Origin: Candidatus Yonathbacteria bacterium
Lineage (GTDB): Bacteria > Patescibacteriota > Minisyncoccia > Phycocordibacterales > UBA1550
Assembly (NCBI GenBank): GCA_016215205.1
Contig: JACRKU010000013.1
Coordinates: forward strand, 29,016-93,015
Direction: 5' to 3'
Length of the DNA: 64,000 nucleotides
Shown: positions 2,509 to 49,560 of the stretch, one piece after another
How positions within the stretch are numbered: position 1 is the stretch's first letter
Layout: every line of letters starts with the position of its first letter
Translations under genes and position numbers: made by a program
Notes under the pieces: model-generated
What the model saw: only the letters and a program-made list of their open reading frames with translations
What the model was told of the DNA's origin: nothing
Database searches by the model: none

Positions 2509-4758
2509 ATGCGCGTAAAAAGTTTGGAAATTTCTGGGTTTAAGTCCTTTGCAAAGAAGAGTGTTTTTGAGTTTGGGGCATCGATTTCGGCTATTGTGGG
2601 ACCGAATGGCTCTGGAAAGTCCAACGTCGCTGAAGCGCTTCGTTTCGTGCTCGGCGAGCAGTCGCTCAAGAGTATGCGTGGCAAGCGCACAGAAGACCTC
2701 ATCTTTAACGGCTCGAAAAGCGCCGAACGGCAAAATCGCGCGAAGGTGACGATTACCTTCGACAACAAAGACCGCACATTTCCCGTGGACTTTGACGAGG
2801 TTTCCATTGCGCGCGAAATCCACCGCGACGCCTCCAGTGAATATTTTTTGAATGGGTCTTCGGTACGCTTGAAAGATATTATTGAACTCCTTGCTTCGGT
2901 GCACATCGGCGCATCGGGACACCACATCATTTCGCAGGGCGAAGCGGATAGAATTTTGAATTCGTCGCCAAAGGACCGCCGCGCGATGATAGAAGACGCC
3001 CTCGGACTCAAGATTTACCACTGGAAAATAAACGAGAGTGAAAAGAAACTTTTGAAGACTGAGGAAAATATGCGTCAGTCGGAGTCTCTCCGCCGCGAGA
3101 TTGCGCCGCATATTAAATTTTTGAAAAAGCAGGTGGAGAAAGTCGAGCAGGCTAGAACATTGCGTGATGAACTCGCGCTTCTCTATGGCGATTATTTAAT
3201 TCGTGAGGAAACATACATCAAACACGCTCGTGAGAAGCTTCATGGAGAAAAAGGAAATCTTGAACGCGAACTTCATGAGGCAAATGAGGCGCTTCTCCGC
3301 GCGGATAGTTTGCGCGGCGTGCAGACGAAAGAAAGCGCCGAGGTTTCGGAGCTTGTGCGCGTGCGCTCGGAAATGGGCGCGGTGCGCCGCGAGCGAGATG
3401 ACCTTGGGAGGAAAATCGGTCGTCTCGAGGGAATGATAGAGTATGAAGAGCGCCGTTTGAATGCGCCGGAAGTTGCGCACGAGAAAACCGTTTCTGCAGA
3501 AGAGGCGGAAAATCTCGCGCAAAATCTGTATGACGAGCTCGGTCATGCAGAGGGAAGCGAGGACTATTTGTATATTAAAGGCGTAGTGAGCGCAACGCGT
3601 AACAAGCTCGGTAAATTCCTCGAACACATCAGGGGAAGTGGTGTCCAAAGAGGTCCCCGCGAGGCGGCAATAAAAGTGCTTGAGGATTTGCGCATTGAAC
3701 ATAAAAACCTTTTGGGCGCACAAGAGAACCTTGAGGATTTGATTTCAGGCTTTGAAGAAAAAATGCGCGAGCTTGAAGCAATACTTGAGACAAAGCGCAG
3801 AGATACCACCGATGCAGAACGCGCATCTTTTGAGTTTCGCGCAAAAAAACAAGAACTTACACTACGCATTGGCATAGTACGCGAACACATTGAAAATTTC
3901 ATGCGCGACGAAGTTGCATTTCGTGAAGAACTCCGCGAGGGGGGAATCCTCGTTGGTCGTTCCATTCTCGATTATGTGAATAATCATATTGATATCGAAC
4001 AAGCCCTTTCAGAGTCACGCGCCGAGCAAGAGAGTCGTCGCAAAAAAATTGAGCGCACTAAAATTCGTTTGGAGGATATTATGGGCGGAGGGTCAGGGGA
4101 GGATATTATGCGCGAGTATGAAGAAGCGGTGGAGCGTGATGTGTTTCTCTCGAAAGAACTCGAGGATTTGAAAACAAGCGCGGAGTCTCTCCGTGAATTG
4201 ATGCGCGGACTCGACGAGGAGCTTGGCGCGCAGTTCAAGGACGGTATTAAGAAAATCAATAAGCAGTTTGGAGAATTTTTTGCATTGATGTTTGGCGGTG
4301 GTACTGCATCGCTTGAAGTTGCGTTAGATAAAAAGAGGAAGCGTGGCGATACAGATATCGAAGGACTATTCGAAGGAGAGCCTGACGACGAAGAAGAAAC
4401 AGAAGAGGGAATTGATGTTGCGATTTCTTTGCCGCACAAAAAAATCCGCGGACTGCAAATGCTTTCTGGTGGCGAGCGCGCGCTCACATCTATCGCACTC
4501 ATCTTTGCGGTTTCGCAGGTGAATCCGCCGCCATTTCTTGTACTCGATGAAACTGATGCGGCTCTCGATGAAGCAAACTCTAAAAAGTATGGCGACATGG
4601 TCGCAACGCTCGCAAAATATTCCCAGCTCATCGTCATAACGCACAACCGCGAAACAATGTCCCGAGCAGGAATTATTTACGGCGTGACGATGGGCTCTGA
4701 CGCTATCTCAAAACTCCTCTCTATTAAGTTTGAGGAAGCGGAGCAGTTGGCGAAGTGA
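2509..4758 (+). CDS. smc: SMC-family chromosome condensation ATPase, short hinge-less form (749 aa)
   Basis: N-terminal head with FKSF, Walker A GPNGSGKSN, Q-loop region; long coiled-coil middle; C-terminal head with signature LSGGERALTSIALIFAV, Walker B FLVLDETDAALD, D-loop; no recognisable hinge (no G-rich hinge motif), length ~430 aa shorter than canonical SMC. Confidence 0.8.
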   Translation: MRVKSLEISGFKSFAKKSVFEFGASISAIVGPNGSGKSNVAEALRFVLGEQSLKSMRGKRTEDLIFNGSKSAERQNRAKVTITFDNKDRTFPVDFDEVSIAREIHRDASSEYFLNGSSVRLKDIIELLASVHIGASGHHIISQGEADRILNSSPKDRRAMIEDALGLKIYHWKINESEKKLLKTEENMRQSESLRREIAPHIKFLKKQVEKVEQARTLRDELALLYGDYLIREETYIKHAREKLHGEKGNLERELHEANEALLRADSLRGVQTKESAEVSELVRVRSEMGAVRRERDDLGRKIGRLEGMIEYEERRLNAPEVAHEKTVSAEEAENLAQNLYDELGHAEGSEDYLYIKGVVSATRNKLGKFLEHIRGSGVQRGPREAAIKVLEDLRIEHKNLLGAQENLEDLISGFEEKMRELEAILETKRRDTTDAERASFEFRAKKQELTLRIGIVREHIENFMRDEVAFREELREGGILVGRSILDYVNNHIDIEQALSESRAEQESRRKKIERTKIRLEDIMGGGSGEDIMREYEEAVERDVFLSKELEDLKTSAESLRELMRGLDEELGAQFKDGIKKINKQFGEFFALMFGGGTASLEVALDKKRKRGDTDIEGLFEGEPDDEEETEEGIDVAISLPHKKIRGLQMLSGGERALTSIALIFAVSQVNPPPFLVLDETDAALDEANSKKYGDMVATLAKYSQLIVITHNRETMSRAGIIYGVTMGSDAISKLLSIKFEEAEQLAK

Positions 4759-5181: not shown

Positions 5182-7210
5182 ACTTCACGAGTTCGTAGTC
5201 GATTGATTTGCGTTCTAGATCAACCGCTTTGACGCGGATTTTTAATTTATCTCCAAGAGTAAAACGCTCCCTAGTTTGTTTGCCGACGATGCGGTAATTC
5301 TCTTTTTCAAAAATATAGTAGTCATTGCCGAGGTCGCTGATGCGGATGAGACCTTCGCACTTTGTTTCATCTTCTTCCACAAAGACGCCCCATTCAGCAA
5401 CGCCGGAGATTGTGCCATTGAATTCTTTGCCTACTCGTTCGCTCATATATTCTGCTTGTTTGAATTTTATAGACGCGCGCTCGGCATCGGCGGCGAGTTT
5501 TTCCATTTCGGATGAATGCGCCGCAAGTGAGCGGTACTCGCTCATTTCTTCTTTTGTTACCTTCTCGTCCGCAAGGAAGTGCGCGAGAATGCGGTGCACC
5601 ATTACATCGGGGTAGCGGCGAATCGGCGAAGTAAAATGCGCGTAGTGCTCGTAAGCAAGGCCATAGTGCCCGATGTTTCGCGTCGAGTAGATTGCTTTTG
5701 CCATCGTGCGGATGGTCGCGGTGTTAAGCATTGTTTCTTCGGGCTTACCTTTTATTTGTTCAAGGAACTTATTTATGTCCGCGGACGAAACACGGCCTTC
5801 TTTAAGCGGGAGCTTGTATCCGAGCCCAGTGGCAAATTTTGCGAGTTCCGCGAGGCGCTCTGGTTTTGGTTCATCGTGCACGCGATACACAAAGAGGTCG
5901 CCCTCGTGCTCACCTTTGTTGCCCGTCTTCTCAAGTTTTTCTGAGACATATTCCGCAACTTTTTTATTTGCGAGAAGCATAAACATTTCCACGAGTTTGT
6001 TTGTATCCTGAAACTTTTTCGTGTACACGCGAATTGGCTTTTTGTTTGCATCGAGCTCAAAGCGCACCTCTTCGTGTTCAAATGATATAGCGCCTCCGGC
6101 TTTGTCTTGCACTACTAGTTTTTTTGCGATGATATTGAGGGTGTTGAGTTCGTCATAAAAAAGACCCGATCCGCTGTCTATTACTTCTTGCGCATTTTCA
6201 TATGTAAAACGTTTTGCCGAGTTGATGATTGCGCGCCCGAACCATGCGTTTCTCATCGTCACTTTTGAAGTTGGATTAGTTGCGGTGTCTGGCGCAAAAG
6301 TGAATACTGCCGAGAAAACAAGTTTGTCTTCTTTTTCGTTCAGACTGCAAAGGTCGTTAGAGAGGACCTCTGGGAACATTGGGATAACGCGGTCAACGAG
6401 GTAAATAGATGTCGCACGCTTGCGCGCCTCTTCGTCTATCAGAGCGTGCGGTTTTACATACGCCGATACATCCGCAATATGCACACCGATTTCAATGTCG
6501 CCATTTGGTAGTGTTTGAATAGAAATAGCGTCGTCAAAATCTTTTGCATCTGCGGGGTCGATGGTGAAAGTCGTTACCTTGCGGAAATCCCGACGCTTCT
6601 TTGCTTCTTCGGCAATGAATGCAGGCGCGGTTTTTTTGAGCGTGTCTGCTTCGCGGTGGATTTTCTCCGGGAGCTCCATTTGGAGACCTTTGTCGAGCAC
6701 AATCGCGCGGATTTCTGTTTCGTTGTCGCCGGCATCGCCAAGGACTTCGATAATTTCTGCAGTAGGGTTTTTCTTTGGGTCGGTCCAGTCTGAAAGACGA
6801 ACAAGGGCCTTCTTTCCGCGTAGTTTTTCACCATGTGGTGGGTTGGAGATGAGGAAATCCACATAGATGCGCGTATCTTGAGGAATGAGAAATGTTGCGC
6901 CGTTCTCTTCGTCAATTGTGCCAACAAAATTTACTTTAGCGCGCGCGAGAACCTCCACCACTTCGCCGGTTTGCTGTATGTCACCGATTTTGGCATTAAG
7001 CCTTACCTTTACCCTGTCGCGGGGAAGGGCGGTATTGAGAAAACCCGCCTCAATGCGAATGTCGTTTTCACGCGGACTGTCTTCGCCCACCGAAACAAAA
7101 CCAAAGCCCTTTGCAGTCGTCGTAATGACGCCCTCAACGAAGCTTCTGGTGAGAGTTTTTTCTTTGATCATATTGTTCCCAAGATAGCATAAAACTAACC
7201 CCTTGACCAT
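5180..7210 (-). CDS. rnr: Ribonuclease R / exoribonuclease II family (RNB domain, C-terminal S1)
   Basis: Cold-shock/OB N-terminus, central RNB catalytic region (…HIADVSAYV…, …GAISFE…), C-terminal S1-like (GTISGVAEWGVFVE); alternative start at 7171 (MIKEKTL). Confidence 0.85.
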   Translation of the reverse strand: MVKGLVLCYLGNNMIKEKTLTRSFVEGVITTTAKGFGFVSVGEDSPRENDIRIEAGFLNTALPRDRVKVRLNAKIGDIQQTGEVVEVLARAKVNFVGTIDEENGATFLIPQDTRIYVDFLISNPPHGEKLRGKKALVRLSDWTDPKKNPTAEIIEVLGDAGDNETEIRAIVLDKGLQMELPEKIHREADTLKKTAPAFIAEEAKKRRDFRKVTTFTIDPADAKDFDDAISIQTLPNGDIEIGVHIADVSAYVKPHALIDEEARKRATSIYLVDRVIPMFPEVLSNDLCSLNEKEDKLVFSAVFTFAPDTATNPTSKVTMRNAWFGRAIINSAKRFTYENAQEVIDSGSGLFYDELNTLNIIAKKLVVQDKAGGAISFEHEEVRFELDANKKPIRVYTKKFQDTNKLVEMFMLLANKKVAEYVSEKLEKTGNKGEHEGDLFVYRVHDEPKPERLAELAKFATGLGYKLPLKEGRVSSADINKFLEQIKGKPEETMLNTATIRTMAKAIYSTRNIGHYGLAYEHYAHFTSPIRRYPDVMVHRILAHFLADEKVTKEEMSEYRSLAAHSSEMEKLAADAERASIKFKQAEYMSERVGKEFNGTISGVAEWGVFVEEDETKCEGLIRISDLGNDYYIFEKENYRIVGKQTRERFTLGDKLKIRVKAVDLERKSIDYELVK

Positions 7211-7238: not shown

Positions 7239-7607
7239 ATGTTAGCAATTCGACTACAGCGCGTTGGCCGCAAAAATGATCCGTCATTTCGCGTCATCGT
7301 GACAGATTCAAAGATGAAAACCAAGACTGGAAACTTCCTTGAAGTTCTCGGTTCGTACAATGCGCGCATGGGCAAGCCGGTTATTAATACCGAGCGCGCA
7401 AAATACTGGATATCTGTAGGCGCAAAAGCGTCCGGTACCGTGCACAACCTCCTTGTAGACTTCAAGGCGGTTTCGGGAAAGAAAATCAATGTTTTGGGTA
7501 AAAAAACTCCCATCGTAAAAGAGGTTCCCGCCGCAGTCGAGATTGCTTCCGGCAAGCCCGCAGAAGAAGTAGTGGAAGCAACGCCAGAAGTTAAACCAGC
7601 TCAGTAA
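7239..7607 (+). CDS. rpsP: 30S ribosomal protein S16 with C-terminal extension
   Basis: MLAIRLQRVGRKNDPSFRVIVTDS...GNFLEVLGSYNA...ERAKYWISVGAKASGTV matches bS16; ~40-aa low-complexity tail. Confidence 0.85.
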   Translation: MLAIRLQRVGRKNDPSFRVIVTDSKMKTKTGNFLEVLGSYNARMGKPVINTERAKYWISVGAKASGTVHNLLVDFKAVSGKKINVLGKKTPIVKEVPAAVEIASGKPAEEVVEATPEVKPAQ

Positions 7608-7617
7608 GTTCAATTAC

Positions 7618-7652
7618 AAAAGCCCCGCCCTTTTCAAAAGGGCGGGGCTTTT
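7618..7652. terminator. Rho-independent terminator (symmetric, bidirectional)
   Basis: aaaagccccgccctttt / aaagggcggggctttt perfect stem with T-runs on both sides. Confidence 0.8.
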
Positions 7653-7656
7653 GTAA

Positions 7657-7686
7657 TTGAAAATTTGTACCACTGCATGGTACAAT
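7657..7686 (+). promoter_or_regulatory. Putative promoter (-35 TTGAAA, -10 TACAAT)
   Basis: TTGAAA at 7657-7662, 18-nt spacer, TACAAT at 7681-7686, ATG at 7696. Confidence 0.35.
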
Positions 7687-7695
7687 ATAAACACG

Positions 7696-8892
7696 ATGGC
7701 ATTTTCTTTTTTTACTAATCGCGGAAATGATGAAACGCTGATCCTCCTTGTTGATATCGGGTCAGCGAGCGTGGGCGGCGCTCTTGTAAAGATTGAAAAA
7801 GGTCGCGCGCCGAATGTTCTTGCAACAGTTCGCAAAGACATCTCATTCCAAGAAGCGCTTTCTTCCGCTCGTTTCTTATCTGCAATGAATCACGCGCTCG
7901 ACCAAGTTTTAAAAACTATCCACCCAAAAACTACCGTCTTAGGTTCTCCCGCGCATATTTTTTGCACGCTTTCGTCCCCTTGGTTTATTTTAAAGACTCG
8001 CCGTTTATTGATTTCACGTCAAGAAGAATTTGAAGTAACCGAACGAGCTCTTGATGAATTTATAAGTGAAGACATCGCGCGTCTGAAAGAAGAACTCAAA
8101 GAAACGCTTCCGCCGAAGGATGTGAAAATCATCGAAAAGAAAATCATTCAGATGAAATTGAATGGATATGAGATCAAAAATCCATACGGCCAAAAAACGT
8201 CACAAATGGAGATTTTGATGACCATCGGGGTTTCGTCCGAAAAGGTTATTGAAAGCATCGAGCGTAAGCTCGGCAATGTTTTTCACGCAAAATCAGTCCA
8301 CTTCGGCGCATTTCCCATTGCCGCATTTAGCGCAGTAAGGGATATTTCCCCAACCGAAAAGAATTTCCTTTTTCTCGACATCACTGGCGAGGCGACCGAT
8401 GTATCACTGGTAAACAATGATCTTTTAATGGGGACGGTGACATTCCCCCATGGAAAAAATTTTTTTATTCGCGAAATTTCTGCGGAGATGCGCACTGTCC
8501 ACTTTGAGGCGGCAACGCTCTTTGCAATGTTTCTCCGTGATGAGTTGGATGACACAAAACGCGCCAGGATTGCGGCTATTATTGCGCGCGCTGAAGACGA
8601 ATGGCTTGCGCGCCTCGAAAAGTCGCTTGGTGCCCTTGCGAAGAACGGTGTATTGCCTCAGAAGGTATTTTTTACAACAGATGCTTTTATCGCTCCACTG
8701 TTTTCTTTGCTCCTCTCTCGCCGAGACCATATCGCAAAGATGGAGCACGGAACGAACGCATCGTTTGAGGCTCAGTATCTCGACCAGCTTATTGTTGAAA
8801 AGTTTGTTTCGTTCAATACGGGAGTTATTAGGGATCCGTTTATGGTCATTGAAGCGCTCCTAGCTTTCAAAATAGTCACGCAACACAAATAA
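7696..8892 (+). CDS. Actin-fold ATPase-like protein (FtsA/PilM/Ppx-GppA superfamily), hypothetical
   Basis: Two phosphate-binding-like motifs LLVDIGSASVGGALV and FLFLDITGEATDVSLV typical of ASKHA/actin-like ATPases; no family-specific motif recognised. Confidence 0.5.
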   Translation: MAFSFFTNRGNDETLILLVDIGSASVGGALVKIEKGRAPNVLATVRKDISFQEALSSARFLSAMNHALDQVLKTIHPKTTVLGSPAHIFCTLSSPWFILKTRRLLISRQEEFEVTERALDEFISEDIARLKEELKETLPPKDVKIIEKKIIQMKLNGYEIKNPYGQKTSQMEILMTIGVSSEKVIESIERKLGNVFHAKSVHFGAFPIAAFSAVRDISPTEKNFLFLDITGEATDVSLVNNDLLMGTVTFPHGKNFFIREISAEMRTVHFEAATLFAMFLRDELDDTKRARIAAIIARAEDEWLARLEKSLGALAKNGVLPQKVFFTTDAFIAPLFSLLLSRRDHIAKMEHGTNASFEAQYLDQLIVEKFVSFNTGVIRDPFMVIEALLAFKIVTQHK

Positions 8893-8893
8893 T

Positions 8894-10240
8894 ATGAATG
8901 ACATTATCCGAAAACAAATGAAAGATGTGATTGTTCCTCATAACGAGGTTATTCGTCGAGTGCCAACCGTACCCGAACCGTACGCCGCGCCAAAGCCTTC
9001 AGAAGAAATGGGGCGCATCGAAAAAAATCCATTTTTCAAAAAGGAGAGAAAAAAAGATGACGAACCACCAAAAGGCAAAAGCGCGCGTTCCCACGCGCTT
9101 ACTTGGGCGTTTCTGGCAGTCGCACTTTTGGTCGCAGTTTTTGTTGTCGCAAACTATTTTTCATCGGCGACGGTAGAAATCACGCCTATCACGCGAAGTA
9201 TAAATCTAGACCGTGATTTTACAGCGGTTTCGTCCGACAAAGCGGTGGAAGGCGATCTCATTTTTCATTTTGTTGCAACTTCCACGGAAAAAATAAAAGA
9301 GGTCCCCGCAACGGTCGAAAAGAAGATTCAAAAAAAAGCGTCAGGGAAAGTAACAATTTTCAACTCCTATAATGGAGAAAGTCAGCGTCTCATCAAAAAC
9401 ACGCGCCTCGAGTCTCCCGGTCGCAAAACATATCGCATCGACCAGTCGGTGATTGTGCCAGGGATGAAGGTCGTCAATGGCAAAAATATGCCCGGCTCTG
9501 TTGAGGCGGTCGTCTATGCCGATGCTCCCGGTCCGGATTATAATATTGATAAACCTGCCGATTTTACAATCCCCGGGTTTAATGGTGACCCCCGATATAC
9601 GAAGTTTTACGCACGCTCAAAACCGGATTCTCCTATCACGGGCGGTTTTTCCGGAACCGTGAATATTCCCTCGGACGAAGCAATCCTACTTGCGCAAGAA
9701 GAATTGAAGCAAGAGCTCCCTAAAATCGCGATTGAAAAAGCGCGCGCGCAGATTCCCGACGGAATGTCGTTGTTTCCCGGAGGTGTGATAATAAAATTTG
9801 AAGATGTGCCGCAGGACATAACCTTAGGCACGCTGTCAAAGGTTGTCGTGCGCGCCACGGCATCGGTATTTTTCTTTGATACGACTGTTCTCACAGAGAA
9901 ACTTGCAGCCGCATTATTGTCCGAAGACAAAGGAAAAACATTCGTAGTCTCTAATATGTCCGCTCTCGCATTCTCATTCGTTGACCCCGTGAACAACGTA
10001 GTTCTCTCTGACCTCTCAAAGATAAGTTTTCATATCAAGGGGGACTTGGTGTTTGTGGGGCAGATTGATGCCACAAAAATCCGCGCGGAACTCGCGGGCA
10101 AAGAAAAAAAAGATTTTGGCAAACTTATCGTCGGAGAGAATAGTATCGGCAAGGCGGATGTTGTTATTCGTCCAATGTGGAAAACTGCCTTTCCTAAAGA
10201 CCCCACAAAGATTACAATAAAAATTGTTAGCGGGGAATAG
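8894..10240 (+). CDS. Bitopic membrane protein with ~360-aa extracytoplasmic domain, hypothetical
   Basis: Translationally coupled to upstream gene (TAA-T-ATG); charged N-terminus, single TM (LTWAFLAVALLVAVFVVANYF), large C-terminal domain without recognised motifs. Confidence 0.5.
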   Translation: MNDIIRKQMKDVIVPHNEVIRRVPTVPEPYAAPKPSEEMGRIEKNPFFKKERKKDDEPPKGKSARSHALTWAFLAVALLVAVFVVANYFSSATVEITPITRSINLDRDFTAVSSDKAVEGDLIFHFVATSTEKIKEVPATVEKKIQKKASGKVTIFNSYNGESQRLIKNTRLESPGRKTYRIDQSVIVPGMKVVNGKNMPGSVEAVVYADAPGPDYNIDKPADFTIPGFNGDPRYTKFYARSKPDSPITGGFSGTVNIPSDEAILLAQEELKQELPKIAIEKARAQIPDGMSLFPGGVIIKFEDVPQDITLGTLSKVVVRATASVFFFDTTVLTEKLAAALLSEDKGKTFVVSNMSALAFSFVDPVNNVVLSDLSKISFHIKGDLVFVGQIDATKIRAELAGKEKKDFGKLIVGENSIGKADVVIRPMWKTAFPKDPTKITIKIVSGE

Positions 10241-10839: not shown

Positions 10840-11220
10840 ATGCGAATCCTAGGAGTAACAATACCGGATGAAAAAAGATTGGAGATAAGTTTGACCGCAG
10901 TGTACGGCATCGGCCGTCCGCGCGCAAAAGAGCTTCTTGATTCCGCAAAAATCGACCATGGCAAGCGCGCCAAAGATTTGACTCCGGGGGACGAGGCGAA
11001 GATTCGTAAAATTATTGAAGAGCTCACTCTTGAAGGAGACCTCAAACGCGAAATTTCGACAAACATAAAGCGTTTGAAAGAAATCAAAGCGTACCGAGGA
11101 TTACGTCACGCAAAAAAGCTTCCCGTTCGCGGACAACGCACAAAGACAAACTCTCGCACCGTGCGCGGGAACAAGCGCACAACGATGGGTTCAGGACGTC
11201 GCAAGGCTGACAAGAAATAA
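10840..11220 (+). CDS. rpsM: 30S ribosomal protein S13
   Basis: MRILGVTIPDEKRLEISLTAVYGIGRPRAKELL... and basic C-terminal tail. Confidence 0.9.
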   Translation: MRILGVTIPDEKRLEISLTAVYGIGRPRAKELLDSAKIDHGKRAKDLTPGDEAKIRKIIEELTLEGDLKREISTNIKRLKEIKAYRGLRHAKKLPVRGQRTKTNSRTVRGNKRTTMGSGRRKADKK

Positions 11221-11242
11221 TAGACTTCAAGCAAAGACCATT

Positions 11243-11677
11243 ATGGGTAAAAAACGAATTATTAAAAAAGAAGGACAGAGCGTTGATCAGGGATTGGTAT
11301 CTCGCGCCCTTTCTCGTACCGCAAAAAAGAAGCATGTTGAAGGGGTACTCTATGTGCAGTCAACATACAATAATACAAAAGTGCTCCTCGCGGACAAGGC
11401 GGGCAACGCGCTCATCTGGTCTTCGTGCGGCTCTCTCGGTTTCAAGGGGGCAAAGAAGGGGACGCCGTTTGCCGCCGCAAAAGTTGGAGAGCTTGTTGGT
11501 GAAAAGGCCGCAATGATCGGAATGAAGGCGGTTGACGTAGTGGTAAAGGGTGTAGGCGCCGGGCGCGAGAGCTCGATTCGCGCGTTCAACTCAAAAGGCA
11601 TCGATATTGCGCTTATTCGCGATGTAACGCCGGTTCCGCACAATGGTCCGAAGCCAAAGAAACCGCGAAGAATTTAA
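11243..11677 (+). CDS. rpsK: 30S ribosomal protein S11
   Basis: VLYVQSTYNNTKVLLADKAGNALIWSSCGSLGFKGAKKGTPFAAAKV...VKGVGAGRESSIRA...VTPVPHNGPKPKKPRR. Confidence 0.9.
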   Translation: MGKKRIIKKEGQSVDQGLVSRALSRTAKKKHVEGVLYVQSTYNNTKVLLADKAGNALIWSSCGSLGFKGAKKGTPFAAAKVGELVGEKAAMIGMKAVDVVVKGVGAGRESSIRAFNSKGIDIALIRDVTPVPHNGPKPKKPRRI

Positions 11678-38894: not shown

Positions 38895-38947
38895 TGAGTC
38901 TAGATTTCTGTAGAAAATAGTGTTATAGTAATGGACGTTTGAAACGA

Positions 38948-39019
38948 GGCCCTATCGTCTATCGGTTAGGACATATCCTTCTCAAGGATAGAAGCGCGGT
39001 TCGATTCCGCGTAGGGTCA
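38948..39019 (+). tRNA. tRNA-Glu (anticodon CUC)
   Basis: Manual fold: acceptor GGCCCTA/TAGGGTC (one G.U), D-arm TCGTCTATCGGTTAGGACA (Glu-like), anticodon stem TATCC/GGATA loop TTCTCAA (U33, CUC, A37), T-arm CGCGG-TTCGATT-CCGCG, discriminator A. Confidence 0.85.
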
Positions 39020-39029
39020 CAAAGCGTTA

Positions 39030-39057
39030 AGAAAAAGTGAATTGCTTCACTTTTTTA
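39030..39057 (+). terminator. Terminator hairpin after tRNA-Glu
   Basis: aaaagtgaa-ttgc-ttcactttt followed by TTTAG. Confidence 0.5.
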
Positions 39058-39061
39058 GCTT

Positions 39062-39125
39062 TGTGAAGGCGCAGTGATGTTTTCTCTGCTCCCCGCAGAG
39101 AAAACCACGAGCCGGGGTCGCGAGC
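39062..39125 (+). repeat. Structured repeat element copy 1 (~64 nt)
   Basis: tgtgaaggcgcagtgatg + hairpin ttttctctgc-tcccc-gcagagaaaa + ccacgagccggggtcgcgagc; copy 2 at 39349 has same flanks with a different but self-complementary hairpin (compensatory). Confidence 0.5.
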
Positions 39126-39231
39126 ACTTAATAGATTGCGAGCAAAGCGAAGCAATATATTTAGTGACTTGTGACCACGCAGATTTTGCCGAACCTTGTT
39201 CGTCTGTAAAGTGTGGTAAAATACTTAGTAA

Positions 39232-39259
39232 CCCGTGAACGATTCCCCGTAGGGTCACA
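39232..39259 (+). repeat. Degenerate direct repeat of tRNA-Glu 3' end (T-loop to acceptor, att-like)
   Basis: cccgtgaacgattccccgtagggtcaca vs tRNA gcgcggttcgattccgcgtagggtcaca (22/28 identical), 240 bp downstream of the tRNA. Confidence 0.45.
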
Positions 39260-39348
39260 TTTAGAAACTTCAGCAGGTGTGAACGAAAAAATGACGCGCG
39301 CCGCAGGCGGAGCCCGATTTTGAGCTCACTTCCGACCAAGTTTCTGAA

Positions 39349-39413
39349 TGTGAAGGCGGAGCGATGTTTTTGTTTCCATCTGAAACAAAAACCGCGAACA
39401 GGATTGACCGAGC
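39349..39413 (+). repeat. Structured repeat element copy 2 (~65 nt)
   Basis: tgtgaaggcggagcgatg + hairpin tttttgtttc-catct-gaaacaaaaa + ccgcgaacaggattgaccgagc. Confidence 0.5.
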
Positions 39414-39529
39414 TTCGCTCGTCGATGTACCCAAAACGGCAATGGTAAAGCTCTGTAAAAACAAGTTTATTTGTGGTATGGTGGGAATTGGATAGTCATT
39501 TCAAATGTTTGTAAGGAAAGGAGGATAAT

Positions 39530-39895
39530 GTGAATTATGAAAAGTCGGAAAAAGTGACGAGGTGGTTCGTGGAGCCGCGTAATGCGGCTACCAATGAAAA
39601 TGCGATGATGGCTCTCGTAGGGTTGTGCAATGCGACCGAAGACAAGATTTATCGCGGTAAAGCGGACAACAAAGGTATGATGCATGATGTGGTAGAGGTT
39701 GATCGTCCTTTTGTCGCGCTCATGGAACGCAATATTGCAAACCATAAACATCTCTTTCGCGTGTTCACGCAGACAGAGGGCGAGAGCGCGATGAAACTGT
39801 GGCCTTTCAGCAACAGAAAGAAACTCCACCGCACGAAAGAAGTACGACGCGTCACGCAAGTTCTCGAAAGGCGTCCTACGCGTCCCAAAAAATGA
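39530..39895 (+). CDS. Hypothetical protein (121 aa), GTG start
   Basis: AGGAGG RBS 5 nt before GTG 39530; no recognised domain; basic C-terminal tail (RKKLHRTKEVRRVTQVLERRPTRPKK); terminator downstream. Confidence 0.5.
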   Translation: MNYEKSEKVTRWFVEPRNAATNENAMMALVGLCNATEDKIYRGKADNKGMMHDVVEVDRPFVALMERNIANHKHLFRVFTQTEGESAMKLWPFSNRKKLHRTKEVRRVTQVLERRPTRPKK

Positions 39896-39911
39896 AAACA
39901 CAAAAAACTCA

Positions 39912-39943
39912 AAACGCCCATGCTTCGCATTGGCGTTTTTTTT
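39912..39943 (+). terminator. Rho-independent terminator
   Basis: aaacgcc...ggcgttt stem with inner atgc-ttc-gcat, followed by TTTTTTTTG. Confidence 0.55.
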
Positions 39944-39973
39944 GCGCCCGTGCCTCAAGTGATGTAAAATGTA

Positions 39974-40686
39974 ATGAATATGACGATACTCAAAAAAGAT
40001 ACATTGCGCAAAGTGGCGATATTCGATATAGACGGCACTATTTTCCGTTCGAGTTTGCTTATTGAGCTTGTTGAGGTTTTGATTGAGCTTGGGCTTTTCC
40101 ACACCAAAGTGCGCGCAGAATACGAGCGTGAAAAAGTGCGATGGCTCGACCGCAAAGGTGACTACGAGGCATACATCATGGCGGTCGTCGGAGTTTTTTG
40201 AAAAATATAAAAGGAATGCCGTACAGTGAGTTTTTGCGCGCATCCGAGCTAGTGGTTGCGCGCTATCGTCATCGCACATACATATTCACAGAGGATCTCA
40301 TCAGGAACTTAAAAAAGGAGGGATATTTCCTTCTCGCCATTTCGCAGTCGCCAAAGGGAACCCTCGATTTGTTTTGCAAAGAAATCGGTTTTGATAAAAC
40401 ATACGGCCGGCTTTATGAGACCGGTCCGACAGAATGTTTTACGGGGAATATTATGGATGAGCATTTGATTGCGAACAAAGCGGCTATCGTGCGCCGAGCT
40501 ATTGAAAAAGATGGGCTCACTCTTGATGGTTCGGTTGGCGTGGGGGACACCGAGGGTGATATTTCATTTCTTGAACTTGTTGACCGGCCGATTTGTTTCA
40601 ATCCAAATTTGAAACTTTACCGCCATGCAAAGAGAATGAATTGGGAAACGGTGGTCGAGAGGAAGGACGTGATTTATGAACTGTAA
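39974..40686 (+). pseudogene. HAD-superfamily hydrolase (HAD-IB/PSPase-like) split by a frameshift at a T-homopolymer
   Basis: ORF 39974-40201 carries motif I (VAIFDIDGTIF); ORF 40198-40686 in another frame carries motif IV (GVGDTEGDISFL); junction at ggagttttttgaaaaa (T6/A5 run) - authentic frameshift or sequencing error. Confidence 0.6.
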
Positions 40687-40689
40687 AAA

Positions 40690-41604
40690 TTATTTCAATA
40701 GAGATGAAATAGGAACTTCAAGTGCGGCAAACGCCGAGTTTTTTGATACTCTGCCATCTTTGCGAATAAGGAAATAGGGGAGGCCGCGCTTTTCCAATCG
40801 CGCAATCGCTTCAGTTTCTGAAAGCAAAATTGCAAGAGAAGCCTCTGTGTCCGCTTCTTCGCATGTGTTTGCAATGACTGTCGCGCTCGCAAACCCCGTA
40901 GACGGTTTGCCTGTTCGCATATCAACGAGATGGTGCCACTCTCGACCCTTGTTTGCGCCTTTTGTTTGGTAAGTGCCTGATGTCGCCATCCCGCCGTTTT
41001 GGATTGTTACTGCCGCTACTATGGCGTCTGGATTACGCGGATCTTCTATTGCGATGTTCCACGGCGCGTCGTTTTCGTACATGCCACGGGTGATTATATC
41101 CCCTCCCGCATTTATCAAAAATCCGGGAACTTTGATGAGCGACTTCCCCGCCTCGTCTATTGCCATCCCTTTTACAATACTTGCTGGTTCAAGGACTTGC
41201 GCGGGAGCGAGGCGGACGGAAAGCTCGCGGTCGTTAAACTCAATGTTACGGTATGTTAGGGGAGGTGATGGCGGTGTAAAATTACTAGGAAGGCCGTAAT
41301 CATACGATGCGAGTACGCCGCCGACTGACGGGTCAAATGCGCCGCGGGTTTCTTCCGCGAGCGCGACACACTTTTTTAATACTTGAAACATAGGAAGGCT
41401 TGCCGTGAACCATTGACCGCCCGCAGTGTTTAATTTGTGAAGCTCGCTTGTTTCATTGAAACGACTGAAACGTTTATCATACTCATGAAAAATATTTTCC
41501 GCTTCGGAAACATATTTTCTTGCTTCTGATTTTTTTATTCCGACAAGCGTAATATGCACCGGAATACCCATTGAGTGAAATACATGATGAATTGTTTCAG
41601 TCAT
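40690..41604 (-). CDS. apbE: FAD:protein FMN transferase (ApbE family flavin transferase)
   Basis: ApbE motifs: GAFDPSVGG, IVKGMAIDEAG, LINAGGDI, GMATSGTYQT; start chosen at M33 (41604), 2 nt after upstream stop. Confidence 0.8.
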   Translation of the reverse strand: MTETIHHVFHSMGIPVHITLVGIKKSEARKYVSEAENIFHEYDKRFSRFNETSELHKLNTAGGQWFTASLPMFQVLKKCVALAEETRGAFDPSVGGVLASYDYGLPSNFTPPSPPLTYRNIEFNDRELSVRLAPAQVLEPASIVKGMAIDEAGKSLIKVPGFLINAGGDIITRGMYENDAPWNIAIEDPRNPDAIVAAVTIQNGGMATSGTYQTKGANKGREWHHLVDMRTGKPSTGFASATVIANTCEEADTEASLAILLSETEAIARLEKRGLPYFLIRKDGRVSKNSAFAALEVPISSLLK

Positions 41605-47082: not shown

Positions 47083-47108
47083 CTTTTTATCTTATGGGAA
47101 TGTGTAAG

Positions 47109-47157
47109 GAAAAGCAAACACCCAGCCTGTCATCTGACAGGCTGGGTGTTTGCTTTT
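47109..47157. terminator. Long perfect hairpin terminator (23-bp stem)
   Basis: aaaagcaaacacccagcctgtca-tc-tgacaggctgggtgtttgctttt; between topA 3' region and relA start. Confidence 0.75.
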
Positions 47158-47169
47158 CCTTACTTCGTT

Positions 47170-47236
47170 TTCTCCAATTTGTGGGGTTTATGATTTGGGC
47201 ACAATTTGTTTGAGCAGCGTTCCGGAATTGTCTTCG
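47170..47236. repeat. Direct repeat copy 1 (~67 nt) matching the 3' end of topA
   Basis: ttatgatttgggcacaatttgtttgagcagcgttccggaattgtcttcg (49-nt identical core) repeated at 47402-47450 inside the topA C-terminal codons. Confidence 0.7.
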
Positions 47237-47373
47237 GTCACGAGTTACTAAGTCTGCTTGAGTGATTACACTCTGCGCGGACTAAGTACTCTCGACCCCG
47301 GCTCGGCTCCCTCGCAAGAGCCTCGGGATGCCTCCGCCCCACGAAGACGATTTGCGCATGCGGTGCATGCTTC

Positions 47374-49560
47374 CTATTTAGACTTCTCCAGTTTATGCGG
47401 ATTATGATTTGGGCACAATTTGTTTGAGCAGCGTTCCGGAATTGTCTTCGTGCCGAGCATCATAAGCGACCCGCACAAGTCGCATACTTTCCCCGTTGGT
47501 TTTGCTTTGATGGCATACTTGCAGTCAGGGTAGTTTGTACAACTATAGAAAATTCCGAAGCGACCTTTGCGTTCGGTCATAAAACCTTTTTTACAAACAG
47601 GGCATGGAACGCCCGTGTGGTTTAGGAGTGCGGCCGTCTCGTCTTTTTTAATAAATTTGCATTTTGGGTAACTTCCGCAGGCAATGAATCTTCCAAAGCG
47701 GCCGTCGCGTTCGACGAGATTTACCTTTCCGCATTTTGGACAAAGCTCGCCCGTGTCGCGCGGGCCGGCGAGCTCGGTGCCGTCTATCATGCGCGCGCCA
47801 ACACACTCGGGATAATTTTTACACGAGAGAAATTTCCCCGTGCGCGCGAGCTTTATAATCATCGGACCGTTGCATTTTGGACACTTGTGTTTTGGGTCTG
47901 CGTCGCCGAGCGTGGTGAGTTTGTCAATCTTGTCTTTTGATTTCACTTCTTTCAAAAATGGTCCGTAAAATTCTTTGAGTACTTTCACATACTCGCGCTC
48001 GCCGTTCGCAATATCATCAAGCTTGTCTTCCATTTCGGCAGTGAACACGTCACTGATGTAGTTTGCAAAATGAGCCTCTAGGAACGAACTCACCACATCG
48101 CCAGTGTCGGTGGGCTTGAGAGCTTTGCTATCTTTAATGACATAGCCGCGGTCAATTATCGTCTTGATGATAGACGCGTATGTGGAAGGGCGGCCGATAT
48201 CGCGTTTTTCGAGCTCTTTCACAAGCCCCGCTTCGGAGTAGCGTGGAGGCGGCTCAGTGAACTTTGCTTCGTCATCCAGAGAAAGAAGGATGAGCGATTC
48301 ACCTGAGGTCAACTTTGGCAGCTCCACATCCTCACCGCGCGAGTCTGTGTCTGCGGCGAGCCAACCTGGCATAATGACGCGAGAACCGGTAACGGAAAAA
48401 TTGGGTATTGAAAAATCACGGACATTGGCGAGAATGGTTGTGCGGGCGAGTTTTGCGTCAATCATCTGCGATGCGATGGTACGCGCCCAGATGAGTCGAT
48501 AAAGTTTTTTCTCTTCAGGGTTGATACCGAGGTCGTCCTTGCTCATGTCGGTGGGGCGAATAGCTTCGTGCGCCTCTTGCGCATTTTTGCTTTTAGTTTT
48601 AAACACGCGTGCTTCCGCGGATTGCGCGCCGTATCTCTTTGTTACTTCAGCGATGACGGCTTTTTGCGCGTCTAAAGAGAGTGTTGTGCTATCGGTACGC
48701 ATATATGTTATGAAACCCCTTTCGTAAAGTTTTTGAGCGATACCCATCGTGCGTGACGGCGCAAAGCCAAAACGCGAAGAGCCTGCTTGTTGAAGTGTGG
48801 ATGTAATGAACGGCGCTTTTGGCGCACGACTGACTTCGCTTTCTTTTACTTCTCGCACAACCCACTGATTTGCGCGCCCGATTTTTAAAATATTTTTTAC
48901 GATTGACTCATCACGCGGCTCCTCCGTACACGAAAGTAGAAGCTCAACACCTTTTCCCGTCTTTACTTTTGCGCTGAGCGACCAGTACGCCTCGGGAATA
49001 AACGCGCGGATTTCACGCTCGCGCTCCATAATGATGCGGAGGGCGGGGGACTGCACTCGCCCAGCCGAAAGACCGTAGCGTACTTTTTTCCAGATGAGCC
49101 CCGAGAGGTCATAGCCCACGAGCCGGTCGAGCACACGACGCGCCTCCTGAGCAACGCGCAAGTTTTCATCAATTAAGCGCGGATGCTTGAGAGCCTCTTC
49201 AATCGCACTTTTTGTAATTTCGTGAAAAACAATTCGCTTTGGTTTTTTCAAACCGCACGCTTCTTTGATGTGCCATGCTATAGCCTCGCCTTCGCGGTCA
49301 GGGTCGGTCGCAAGAAGCACTTCGCTCGCTTTTTTTGCAAGCACATCAATCTCGTGTACCACCTCGGCTTTACCTTTTGAAATTTCATAATGCGGAATAA
49401 AGCCGCCGGGGATGTCGATAGCTTTCTTATTGCTCTTTGGAAGGTCGCGAATATGCCCCACGCTCGCTTTTACGACATATTCGTTGCCCAAATATTTTCC
49501 AATCGTCTTCGCTTTTGACGGCGACTCGACAATGAGAAGTTTGTATTGTTTAACGGTCAT
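47374..49560 (-). CDS. topA: DNA topoisomerase I
   Basis: TOPRIM N-terminus, catalytic Tyr region, multiple C-terminal zinc ribbons (CPKCNGPM, CPKCGKVNL, CPVCKKGFM, CDLCGSLM). Confidence 0.95.
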   Translation of the reverse strand: MTVKQYKLLIVESPSKAKTIGKYLGNEYVVKASVGHIRDLPKSNKKAIDIPGGFIPHYEISKGKAEVVHEIDVLAKKASEVLLATDPDREGEAIAWHIKEACGLKKPKRIVFHEITKSAIEEALKHPRLIDENLRVAQEARRVLDRLVGYDLSGLIWKKVRYGLSAGRVQSPALRIIMEREREIRAFIPEAYWSLSAKVKTGKGVELLLSCTEEPRDESIVKNILKIGRANQWVVREVKESEVSRAPKAPFITSTLQQAGSSRFGFAPSRTMGIAQKLYERGFITYMRTDSTTLSLDAQKAVIAEVTKRYGAQSAEARVFKTKSKNAQEAHEAIRPTDMSKDDLGINPEEKKLYRLIWARTIASQMIDAKLARTTILANVRDFSIPNFSVTGSRVIMPGWLAADTDSRGEDVELPKLTSGESLILLSLDDEAKFTEPPPRYSEAGLVKELEKRDIGRPSTYASIIKTIIDRGYVIKDSKALKPTDTGDVVSSFLEAHFANYISDVFTAEMEDKLDDIANGEREYVKVLKEFYGPFLKEVKSKDKIDKLTTLGDADPKHKCPKCNGPMIIKLARTGKFLSCKNYPECVGARMIDGTELAGPRDTGELCPKCGKVNLVERDGRFGRFIACGSYPKCKFIKKDETAALLNHTGVPCPVCKKGFMTERKGRFGIFYSCTNYPDCKYAIKAKPTGKVCDLCGSLMMLGTKTIPERCSNKLCPNHNPHKLEKSK
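47384..47450. repeat. Direct repeat copy 2 (inside topA 3' coding end)
   Basis: Identical 49-nt core plus similar flanks; encodes ...MLGTKTIPERCSNKLCPNHN on minus strand. Confidence 0.7.

Follow-up and report, generated by a model that had tools for sequence, protein, structure and literature searches.

A structured element without open reading frames behind tRNA genes of Patescibacteria, a candidate mobile cassette entering at the T-loop CGA

The window, a stretch of 64,000 nucleotides (nt) from a Candidatus Yonathbacteria genome, carries a tRNA-Glu gene in the neighborhood of mraZ, rsmH, ftsL, ftsI, and murF. This gene is followed by copies of a short folded element, the core, which recurs behind topA in the same window and behind many other tRNA genes of Patescibacteria. 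A sequence-only reading of the locus had reported a partial copy of the tRNA 3′ end and two structured elements of about 65 nt, and had proposed either the scar or boundary of an integrative element or a pair of small RNAs. The features behind tRNA-Glu are given below in window coordinates; R1 is the covariance model that was searched on the window, where its three matches were also obtained with the speed filters off, and on the loci described later.

38948 to 39020, plus strand: tRNA-Glu(CTC), called by ARAGORN and matched by Rfam RF00005 (53.9 bits); the target of the element
39005 to 39021, plus strand: first direct repeat, TTCCGCGTAGGGTCACA, tRNA positions 59 to 73 with 2 nt of trailer, repeated at 39243 to 39259
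39017 to 39066, plus strand: trailer/anti-trailer helix, read from the sequence, in which TCACAAAGC (39017 to 39025) pairs with GCTTTGTGA (39058 to 39066)
39055 to 39183, plus strand: copy A, a complete core of 129 nt (R1, 138.6 bits, E = 7e-32)
39223 to 39242, plus strand: decayed 3′ end of another core, ACTTAGTAACCCGTGAACGA, ending in GTGAACGA and matching the 3′ end of the family, ACTTAGTAACTCGTGACCGA
39243 to 39259, plus strand: second direct repeat, TTCCCCGTAGGGTCACA, a direct copy of tRNA positions 59 to 73 with 2 nt, starting directly after CGA as it does family-wide; the att-like repeat of the sequence-only reading
39255 to 39353, plus strand: inverted repeat, found by repeat search, between the second direct repeat with its trailer, TCACATTTAGAAACTT (39255 to 39270), and the 5′ flank of copy C, AAGTTTCTGAATGTGA (39338 to 39353)
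39342 to 39433, plus strand: copy C, an internally deleted core (R1, 35.1 bits, E = 8e-07; 50 model positions missing)

The T-loop of tRNA-Glu, TTCGATT, occupies 39000 to 39006, with A58 at 39004. The 20-mer CGATTCCGCGTAGGGTCACA (CGATTCC, then G>C, then CGTAGGGTCACA) stands at 39002 to 39021 and again at 39240 to 39259, the two being identical at 19 of 20 positions and 238 nt apart. A 28-nt version is identical at 21 of 28 positions as counted from the sequence, and the partial tRNA copy is thereby borne out. No third site was found in the window at up to 3 mismatches, and 100 shuffles gave 0 matches. The decayed core end followed by a direct tRNA copy from T-loop position 59 (39240 to 39259) is the usual 3′ junction of the family.

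The motif TGTGAAGGCGsAGyGATG occurs at exactly two sites in the window, 39062 and 39349 (0 of 100 shuffles gave two or more), so that the shared flank of the two elements holds. Their P1a hairpins (10 to 11 bp) differ at four stem positions, all of which are compensated (TTTTCTCTGC/GCAGAGAAAA versus TTTTTGTTTC/GAAACAAAAA), and an outer GYG/CRC pair covaries between copies A and C, as expected for the structural selection that had been suggested. The 65-nt units are not whole elements: each is the 5′ module of a three-helix core of about 125 nt, complete in copy A and internally deleted in copy C. What had been taken for a pair of small RNAs is one full and one shortened copy of a larger multicopy family.

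In copy A, P1 is formed by GGC (39068 to 39070) and GCC (39111 to 39113), P1a by the hairpin at 39074 to 39108, P2 by 39116 to 39128 and 39163 to 39176 with a bulged A, and P3 by a hairpin at about 39131 to 39160. The fold on the plus strand has a minimum free energy of −53.1 kcal/mol (z = −7.3). Copy C retains P1 and P1a, has lost P2 and P3, and carries the terminal hairpin CCGAGCTTCGCTCG at 39408 to 39421.

Loci used for comparison are referred to by L-numbers. The reference set consisted of 80 loci anchored on MurF, which were not chosen for the element. Together with the genes named above, they place the organism among the Patescibacteria (Paceibacteria, Yonathbacteria/Nomurabacteria-like). 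The search for further copies yielded a third one in the window and at least 120 metagenome contigs, which were recruited with a 28-base pattern taken from the conserved core. At E ≤ 1, R1 gave 23 matches in the window plus 81 loci, located in the window and in 13 of the 80 MurF loci. The model also gave 128 matches in 100 of the listed metagenome loci. The family is so far specific to Patescibacteria.

BLAST of 38895 to 39530 against the MurF loci showed that 39032 to 39204 is conserved in L063, L015, L007, L016, L008, and L065. The 5′ end of copy A, TTTGTGA, is the complement of the last tRNA bases with trailer (TCACAAA) and is joined straight to the AGG of the core. This derived form, TTTGTGAAGG, is common to the window, L063, L015, L007, L016, L078, and L070. 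The trailer/anti-trailer helix, which encloses the hairpin AAAAAGTGAA-TTGC-TTCACTTTTT (39032 to 39055), recurs in L016, L063, L015, and L007, where it differs in sequence and still pairs. From the shared 5′ form and the covarying helix it follows that copy A is old, vertically inherited, and conserved in its core, having lost most of its inverted repeat. The anti-trailer (39058 to 39066) is what is left of that inverted copy after deletion of the complement of acceptor and T stem, and copy C and the remnant at 39223 to 39242 are decayed units farther out.

The third copy of the window lies behind topA.

47229 to 47351, minus strand: third core copy, complete, directly behind topA and on the same strand (R1, 61.7 bits, E = 2.9e-13)
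47375 to 47450, minus strand: proximal direct repeat, the last 76 nt of the topA frame including the stop codon (repeat search and translation)
47161 to 47236, minus strand: distal direct repeat, 89% identical over 76 nt, starting directly after the GACCGA that ends the core
47340 to 47352, minus strand: 13-nt inverted copy (92%) of the target at 47440 to 47452, abutting the 5′ end of the core (repeat search)

This core folds with a minimum free energy of −51.8 kcal/mol (z = −4.3). The two topA repeats are identical over 47 nt (47190 to 47236 and 47404 to 47450), and the distal one still encodes a diverged topA C terminus, CPNHKPHKLEKTK, followed by a stop. The inserted unit is 214 nt long and its target reads GCACGA/AGAC (the slash marks the junction), again with CGA; it is a separate insertion from the copies at tRNA-Glu. 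An independent Logan assembly of the same strain has a contig break inside the repeat region behind topA. Between the distal repeat and relA, a perfect 29-bp palindrome with a 2-nt loop (47104 to 47163) forms an unusually long terminator-like hairpin.

Across the family, the core measures 70 to 125 nt on the tRNA-sense strand (shortest copy seen, 82 nt; full unit, about 125 nt) and folds into a three-way junction of P1 with the variable hairpin P1a, P2 with the variable hairpin P3, and a closing helix. In an alignment of six copies, P1 has 3 bp (GNC/GN′C) and P2 is a 13-bp helix with a bulged A, P1a and P3 being the two variable hairpins. RNAalifold predicted 36 pairs from six orthologous copies, 20 of them with compensatory changes. 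In an alignment of 125 distinct sequences, 94.9% of the cells form standard pairs, compared with 67.8% after shuffling of the 3′ letters and 29 to 47% after sliding of the partners. Double changes are found at 36 of 36 pairs (905 double-change cells versus 258 in the control). This larger alignment was fitted to the model, which favors structure somewhat, and the independent MAFFT/RNAalifold result agrees with it. The core is thus confirmed as a structured nucleic acid under selection.

One G·U pair is conserved in 112 of the 125 sequences. Since the other strand would have a C·A mismatch there, it is the tRNA-sense strand that folds. At the base of P2, the sequence GGUCGC/GUGACC hardly changes, while P1a and P3 vary freely in length and sequence. 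Near-invariant junction bases are UCGAAAG, GSAG, CGAG, and GGGGUCGC/GUGACCGA; the bulged A in P2 recurs, as read from individual copies and not from a family-wide count. The recruiting pattern fixes UCGAAAG, CGAG/GGGGU, and GUGACCGA, so that their invariance is partly built in, and copies found without this pattern show variants in these segments. The canonical core starts with TCGAAAG, ends with GTGACCGA, and has the T-loop trinucleotide CGA as its boundary at either end.

These alignments also bear on a coding interpretation, in which the ATG of the GATG motif would open small peptide genes of 54 amino acids (aa; 39074 to 39238) and 43 aa (39364 to 39495). Both open reading frames (ORFs) exist and have AAGG upstream. 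However, neither ATG nor frame is conserved, L015, L063, and L016 reading GGCATAATTT with a stop; the differences between copies are compensatory stem changes and not synonymous ones; and Pfam gave no match. The alignment of orthologous copies refutes this explanation, which is almost certainly wrong.

The Rfam search with the copies matched no family. With Rfam 15, the tRNA alone passes its gathering score in the window, and nothing was reported over the element at E ≤ 10 in 38900 to 39560. At E ≤ 1, there was likewise no match on 10 loci with canonical copies and none on 4 loci with the second core type described below. The models covered included hammerhead, twister, twister-sister, pistol, hatchet, HDV-like, group I and II introns, omega/HEARO, tmRNA, 6S, and SRP. 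By eye, the motifs do not fit hammerhead, HDV-like, or group II domain V/VI structures, in agreement with Rfam. An integron attC site was also considered and rejected, the two conserved flanks not being inverse core sites of each other.

The link to tRNA genes is close and oriented. In 97 of 123 pattern matches, a tRNA ends at most 150 nt upstream, on the same strand in 97 of 97 cases, and more than 35 tRNA species are represented; gaps of 62 to 65 nt between tRNA and core are the most common. The other 26 matches are mostly outer units of tandem arrays, or lie at contig ends or behind T-arm-bearing 3′ ends that ARAGORN left uncalled. Well-preserved copies (L065, L055, L043, and L057) show the order tRNA, linker hairpin, inverted repeat (IR), core, and direct repeat (DR), and whole units span 200 to 300 nt. 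At the MurF loci, the repeat lies downstream of 8 of 57 tRNAs and upstream of 1 of 57, and the core is present at 9 of 59 tRNA-Glu genes. In a biased sample, the core described so far (type 1) stands behind 0 of 19 tRNAs with a TTCAA T-loop, compared with 102 of 241 others. In L082, L126, and L198, the element follows uncalled T-arm-bearing ends (GGGTTCGATTCCC, then CTCCAC) that by eye resemble the 3′ ends of tmRNA; if they are tmRNA, then tmRNA genes would be targets as well.

The same slot is also filled by at least one second, unrelated core type, lying between the IR and the CGA/DR junction: on the minus strand in L070 (about 8860 to 9010), L119 (about 11100 to 11260), L142 (about 3740 to 3895), and L174 (about 190 to 350), and on the plus strand in L131 (about 2190 to 2360). 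Its consensus runs from GCCCGAUUG through CAAUCGGG, GUACUGA, and a hairpin to a terminal UCGA at the junction; GCCCGAUUG and CAAUCGGG form a long-range helix, and the hairpin has 5 bp and a UGUAA loop. Behind a tRNA with a TTCAA T-loop, this core ends in UUUCAA instead. Some type 1 cores are followed by the 3′ part of this second type in shortened form, AAGCGTACTCGCGG.

The flanks of the core are direct and inverted copies of about the last 18 bases of the tRNA. The DR starts exactly at tRNA position 59, after C56-G57-A58, which are also the last three bases of the core. It matches its own tRNA at 11.6 of 16 positions on average (perfectly in 35 of 93), compared with 7.0 for shuffled pairings, and the inner 7 nt of the IR match at 5.9 of 7 compared with 3.8. 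The median length of the flanking repeats is 14 nt, the longest reaching 60 to 76 nt. Both repeats extend into trailer sequence, so that the gene or its primary transcript, and not the mature tRNA, must have served as template. The linker is partly borne by the element, as recurrent linker types are found behind different tRNAs: CAAAnnGCC with an 11-bp hairpin (mostly GNRA-type loops) and GTTGCnnTTTGT, and a second type, AAAAACGGAGTTTTT.

At stem positions with G·U pairs or mismatches, the IR agrees with the complement of the 3′ strand in 73 cases and with the 5′ strand in 9, a count in which a few tRNAs are aligned one base out of register. The IR therefore arises by complementary copying of the 3′ segment. 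The same count rules out tRNA mimicry, that is, an IR copied from the 5′ half of the tRNA; the alanine G3·U70 pair, for example, is lost. Once formed, IR and DR decay independently. Departures from the tRNA were counted at 84 positions for the IR alone, at 88 for the DR alone, and at 8 for both together, so that 8 compensated positions face 172 uncompensated ones and no compensatory upkeep of the IR/DR helix was found; 22% of the inner pairs are not standard pairs. The IR/DR helix is thus a by-product, and it is the core that is under selection. Membership among tRNA mimics or tmRNA-like RNAs is not supported, given the lost tRNA G·U pairs and the uncompensated decay, and ARAGORN calls no tmRNA here.

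Cores and flanks have been reassorted. Cores that are 93 to 96% identical stand behind different tRNAs, one group of them behind Arg-TCT, Trp, and Tyr and a second behind Ser-GCT and Ala-GGC, each with flanks that match the local tRNA, and in L170 two cores are 99% identical with unrelated flanks. In L093, two tandem units have identical 44-nt flanks and differ in their cores; the tRNA-proximal unit is the youngest, divergence is greatest in the outermost repeat, and L090 and L085 are consistent with the same polarity. Tandem arrays of two to three units with a period of about 200 nt were also seen in L094 (about 5900 to 6550, minus), L065 (7837 to 8154, minus), and L090 (about 3020 to 3260, plus), with outer units progressively decayed, some to a linker, GTGACCAA, and a direct repeat.

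Presence or absence of the element was compared between close relatives. L004, whose murF is 80% identical in DNA sequence and which is the closest relative of the window genome, has no element: nothing corresponds to 39021 to 39469, and sequence matching 39470 onward follows directly. Its 121-aa gene and intact HAD gene are kept in the same order as in the window. The sequence-only reading had extended a possible insertion over 39020 to 40690. The stretch up to 39469 indeed lacks a counterpart in L004, but the far end, with the 121-aa and HAD genes, does not belong to it. The tRNA-Glu gene of L004 (7353 to 7426) is inverted relative to that of the window and converges on murF, with which it shares a bidirectional terminator; a tRNA has thus been inverted between close relatives at the element locus. 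Ahead of the 121-aa gene, L004 moreover contains an insert of 138 nt with a small ORF of hydrophobic character (7558 to 7725). In the window, the HAD-family phosphatase gene is split into two overlapping plus-strand frames, 39974 to 40201 (75 aa) and 40198 to 40686 (162 aa), where L004 has one intact ORF of 237 aa (8181 to 8894). The same split is present in the independent Logan assembly of the strain (L203), and it is probably a real frameshift or pseudogene and not an assembly error.

Tyrosine integrases specific for the T-loop classically leave behind a direct repeat that reaches from this loop to the 3′ end of the tRNA. The elements might accordingly be attL/attR scars of integrase islands whose cargo was lost, the core being the arm region of an attachment site. 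Like P4-type and other tRNA-targeting integrative elements, they use the tRNA 3′ end as target, leave the tRNA intact, and have the newest tandem unit next to the tRNA, so that the arrays resemble tandem islands. In contrast to those elements, however, units of 200 to 300 nt leave no room for cargo or integrase. Among the 96 nearest downstream ORFs there was no recurrent integrase, only one XerC-like N terminus, and the canonical pattern had no match in 2.9 million viral contigs. An inverted target copy is not a product of site-specific recombination, and one core serves more than 35 tRNA species with flanks rewritten to match each time. The conserved part, moreover, is a folded single strand, as the G·U pair and the compensatory changes indicate, and not a set of duplex protein-binding arms. 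This explanation is largely refuted and we consider it very improbable. Of the proposed integrative scar, the part that stands is that the tRNA-end repeat marks an insertion boundary, L004 having no counterpart of 39021 to 39469; the integrase island does not, in view of repeat spacings of 238 and 214 nt, the inverted copy, and the lack of a recurrent integrase. A single match of the window-type 5′ motif in a viral contig (L001, 5674 to 5694) is not recognized by the covariance model and is most likely due to chance, about 1 chance match being estimated for this pattern under an assumed collection size.

On balance, we read the region as three copies of an ORF-less, nonautonomous mobile cassette, a T-loop-linked element that targets the T-loop CGA; we hold this to be probable, though with considerable reserve. 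The CGA (C56-G57-A58) of a functioning tRNA gene would be the entry point of new units, and older ones would be displaced outward, which fits the observation that the unit nearest the tRNA is the least decayed in tandem arrays. The 3′ end of another gene would be a rare alternative target, as with topA. Each entry would leave two copies of the target 3′ segment (position 59 to the tRNA end, with trailer), one direct after the core and one inverted before it, the latter made as the complement of the 3′ strand. With the segment copied in both orientations, the tRNA gene would stay intact.

The element may spread when copying folds back or switches template at the T-loop, which is nearly palindromic (TTCGAA), or it may pass through RNA and be copied back from there; the enzymes would presumably act in trans, and the core would serve for recognition or catalysis. 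If copying folds back or changes template at TTCGAA, or primes itself at the terminator hairpin, an inverted complementary copy ending at position 59 would result, and a second switch at the terminal CGA of the core would give the direct copy. As to its role, the core may act as ribozyme, guide, or protein-binding scaffold. Two points speak against an RNA route: the U-rich hairpins between tRNA and core, and a 2026 survey in which 95 complete Patescibacteria genomes had no group II introns (PMC13011429), so that at least this source of reverse transcriptase is lacking.

It is conceivable, although unlikely, that the type 1 and second cores are RNAs of a new kind, catalytic or guiding, and that they drive mobility with no protein or with host enzymes alone, the RNA cutting and joining at the T-loop CGA and returning to DNA by fold-back copying. 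The small size, the three-way junction, the near-invariant junction bases, and the sharp CGA boundaries are no more than suggestive of a self-cleaving ribozyme of a new class.

Several observations weigh against a mobile cassette. Mobility is deduced from comparative patterns only, as no transposition intermediate, enzyme, or within-species pair of empty and filled sites was seen. Exact-protein look-ups with RelA and MurF, made for empty and filled alleles of the same strain, gave contigs of one sample, of which the one spanning tRNA-Glu has the same structure, and BLAST of the flanks among loci gave no empty/filled pair. In general, sharing a contig does not go with greater similarity between copies (median, 0.62 both within and between contigs), and there is therefore little sign of recent bursts within genomes; L170 and L179 are exceptions. 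The recruiting pattern fixes the ends of the element, and the CGA boundary is thus partly built into the metagenome sample. The G·U pair sets the strand but cannot separate RNA from folded single-stranded DNA, and hairpins with U-runs between tRNA and core, as at tRNA-Glu, mean that cotranscription of the core is not assured. Finally, the tRNA-Glu copy is conserved across genomes in which MurF is just 51 to 76% identical, which agrees with a host function no less than with a selfish one.

This long conservation of copy A speaks in favor of a host-beneficial function or domestication. In such an explanation, the core would be a working noncoding RNA on tRNA transcription units, for example, a 3′-trailer RNA freed by RNase Z and RNase P via the IR/DR minihelix. 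It would have spread among tRNA loci by ordinary recombination, with the tRNA-end repeats as by-products or processing signals. The copy with the TTTGTGAAGG end persists in the window and six loci with compensatory changes, the trailer/anti-trailer helix changes sequence and stays paired in relatives, the orientation is always sense to the tRNA, and the junction bases and one G·U pair are retained. Against this stand the patchy presence (9 of 59 tRNA-Glu loci and none in the closest relative), the frequency of truncated and of tandem decaying copies, the copy behind topA, and at least one unrelated core type in the same slot. The IR/DR helix, moreover, decays without compensation, with over a fifth of its inner pairs nonstandard, and does not keep the G·U identity pairs of the tRNA. 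We regard a host RNA as rather unlikely.

If the folded top strand acts as DNA, the element could instead be a relic of a single-stranded-DNA transposon derived from IS200/IS605, similar to palindrome-associated transposable elements (PATEs). An HUH transposase or nickase acting in trans would cut after CGA in a T-arm hairpin extruded from the lagging-strand template, and again at the CCGA end. Strand-specific folding, the same CGA at both boundaries, and a target in a hairpin loop agree with this, as does the fixed orientation relative to the tRNA gene, tRNA genes being usually co-oriented with replication; the U-run hairpins, which would hinder cotranscription, also suit a DNA element. However, IS200/IS605 elements make no target duplication, and here a fixed CGA is accompanied by direct repeats of 16 to 76 nt and an inverted copy. 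No clustered ORF family in the 120 metagenome loci resembled an HUH enzyme or TnpB (few clusters were scanned against Pfam), no TnpA- or TnpB-like ORF was found near the elements among the metagenome loci examined, and Rfam gave no IS605 or omega-RNA match. We judge a transposon relic of this kind to be improbable, and the element does not class with IS200/IS605 PATEs or TnpB omega-RNAs.

The search for encoded machinery was extended to all neighbors. All-against-all clustering of 618 ORFs from the 120 metagenome loci revealed no recurrent reverse transcriptase, integrase, or transposase, and a scan with anchor motifs found no core split by an ORF-sized insert. The recurrent neighbors YraN/UPF0102, CCA-adding enzyme, MiaA, and a GTPase were rejected as machinery, all of them coming from one tRNA-rich syntenic block. 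An ORF of about 222 aa with an N-terminal helix-turn-helix (HTH; Pfam HTH_23 and similar) and a LAGLIDADG-like motif (e.g., LIAGLALYWAEGYK) occurs in L093 (3540 to 4220), L095 (2740 to 3405), L096 (95 to 565), and L143 (2443 to 3111), and also in L089, L090, and L174; four loci have it immediately upstream of tRNA genes (Met and Gly) that bear the element. Neither the window nor any MurF locus contains this ORF, and it was rejected as the enzyme of the element; it may be a free-standing homing endonuclease that favors tRNA neighborhoods.

Likeness to other short elements is partial. Miniature inverted-repeat transposable elements (MITEs), repetitive extragenic palindromes and bacterial interspersed mosaic elements (REP/BIME), and PATEs are likewise short, ORF-less, multicopy, hairpin-rich intergenic repeats, presumably moved in trans. 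In contrast to them, the element has no terminal inverted repeats of its own and no fixed short duplication; its flanks of 16 to 76 nt are copied from the target in both orientations, and the target is one position in the tRNA T-loop. Specifically, its own ends, TCGAAAG and GTGACCGA, share just the short TCG/CGA complement, and the flanking repeats are variable and target derived, unlike those of a MITE. Class C (IIC) group II introns and their ORF-less derivatives are also structured RNAs inserted just behind 3′-end hairpins in sense orientation. The core is, however, far smaller (70 to 125 nt, compared with an RNA of about 400 nt or more), lies beside an intact target gene with target duplications, matches no Rfam intron model, and gave no ORF-interrupted copy in the anchor-motif scan.

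The Mauriceville and Varkud retroplasmids of Neurospora integrate at tRNA genes via a hybrid plasmid-tRNA cDNA followed by homologous recombination. They share with the present element the small size, the place next to a tRNA gene, the tRNA sequence duplicated at the junction, and proposed template switching. They differ in encoding a reverse transcriptase, none of which was seen near these elements, and the junctions here include trailer sequence. Retrozymes, short interspersed nuclear elements (SINEs), and viroid-like ribozyme elements of eukaryotes are similar in being protein-free, with a conserved RNA structure and a tRNA-like link, and a circularized unit (DR, linker, IR, and core) would form a rod that a structured domain closes off. 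The present element differs from these in its bacterial host and in having no known ribozyme motif by Rfam search, and it is known here from DNA sequence alone. It is undescribed in the literature covered by full-text searches, in which the closest paper treats group I introns that sit within Patescibacteria tRNA genes and does not mention it (PMC13011429). We file it as a previously undescribed small nonautonomous repeat element.

Many tRNA genes of Patescibacteria thus carry a strongly conserved structured element despite the tiny genomes of these bacteria. If the element is mobile without encoding a protein, it would represent a new route for small nucleic acid parasites in bacteria, with entry at the universal T-loop CGA and the target rebuilt each time. 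If RNA drives it, it would be a bacterial, DNA-integrated counterpart of viroid-like or retrozyme-like elements, with tRNA genes as landing pads, and if it is a host RNA, it would be a new, widespread class of noncoding RNA tied to tRNA transcription units. The covariance model can be used to annotate hundreds of "empty" intergenic regions, and the element may explain breaks of metagenome contigs beside tRNA genes. A compact RNA such as the shortest copy offers a direct test object for self-cleavage or protein binding.

Two loci show the core or part of it in other settings. L179, a contig of 3,200 nt, has a 127-nt terminal direct repeat with a complete core and is either a circle of 3,073 nt or a segment between two identical copies. 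The contig has a gene for a DUF3800 protein (267 aa), some further small ORFs, and no tRNA, and the core lies at the 3′ end of an ORF of 118 aa. On the reverse strand of L050 (about 840 to 1100), a CRISPR-like array has four repeats about 70 nt apart; the repeat, GTGCACAGACCCCATCGAAAGACGGAGGGGGTGGGCTAC, and the 5′ end of the canonical element have 14 nt in common (ATCGAAAGACGGAG), through chance or real kinship.

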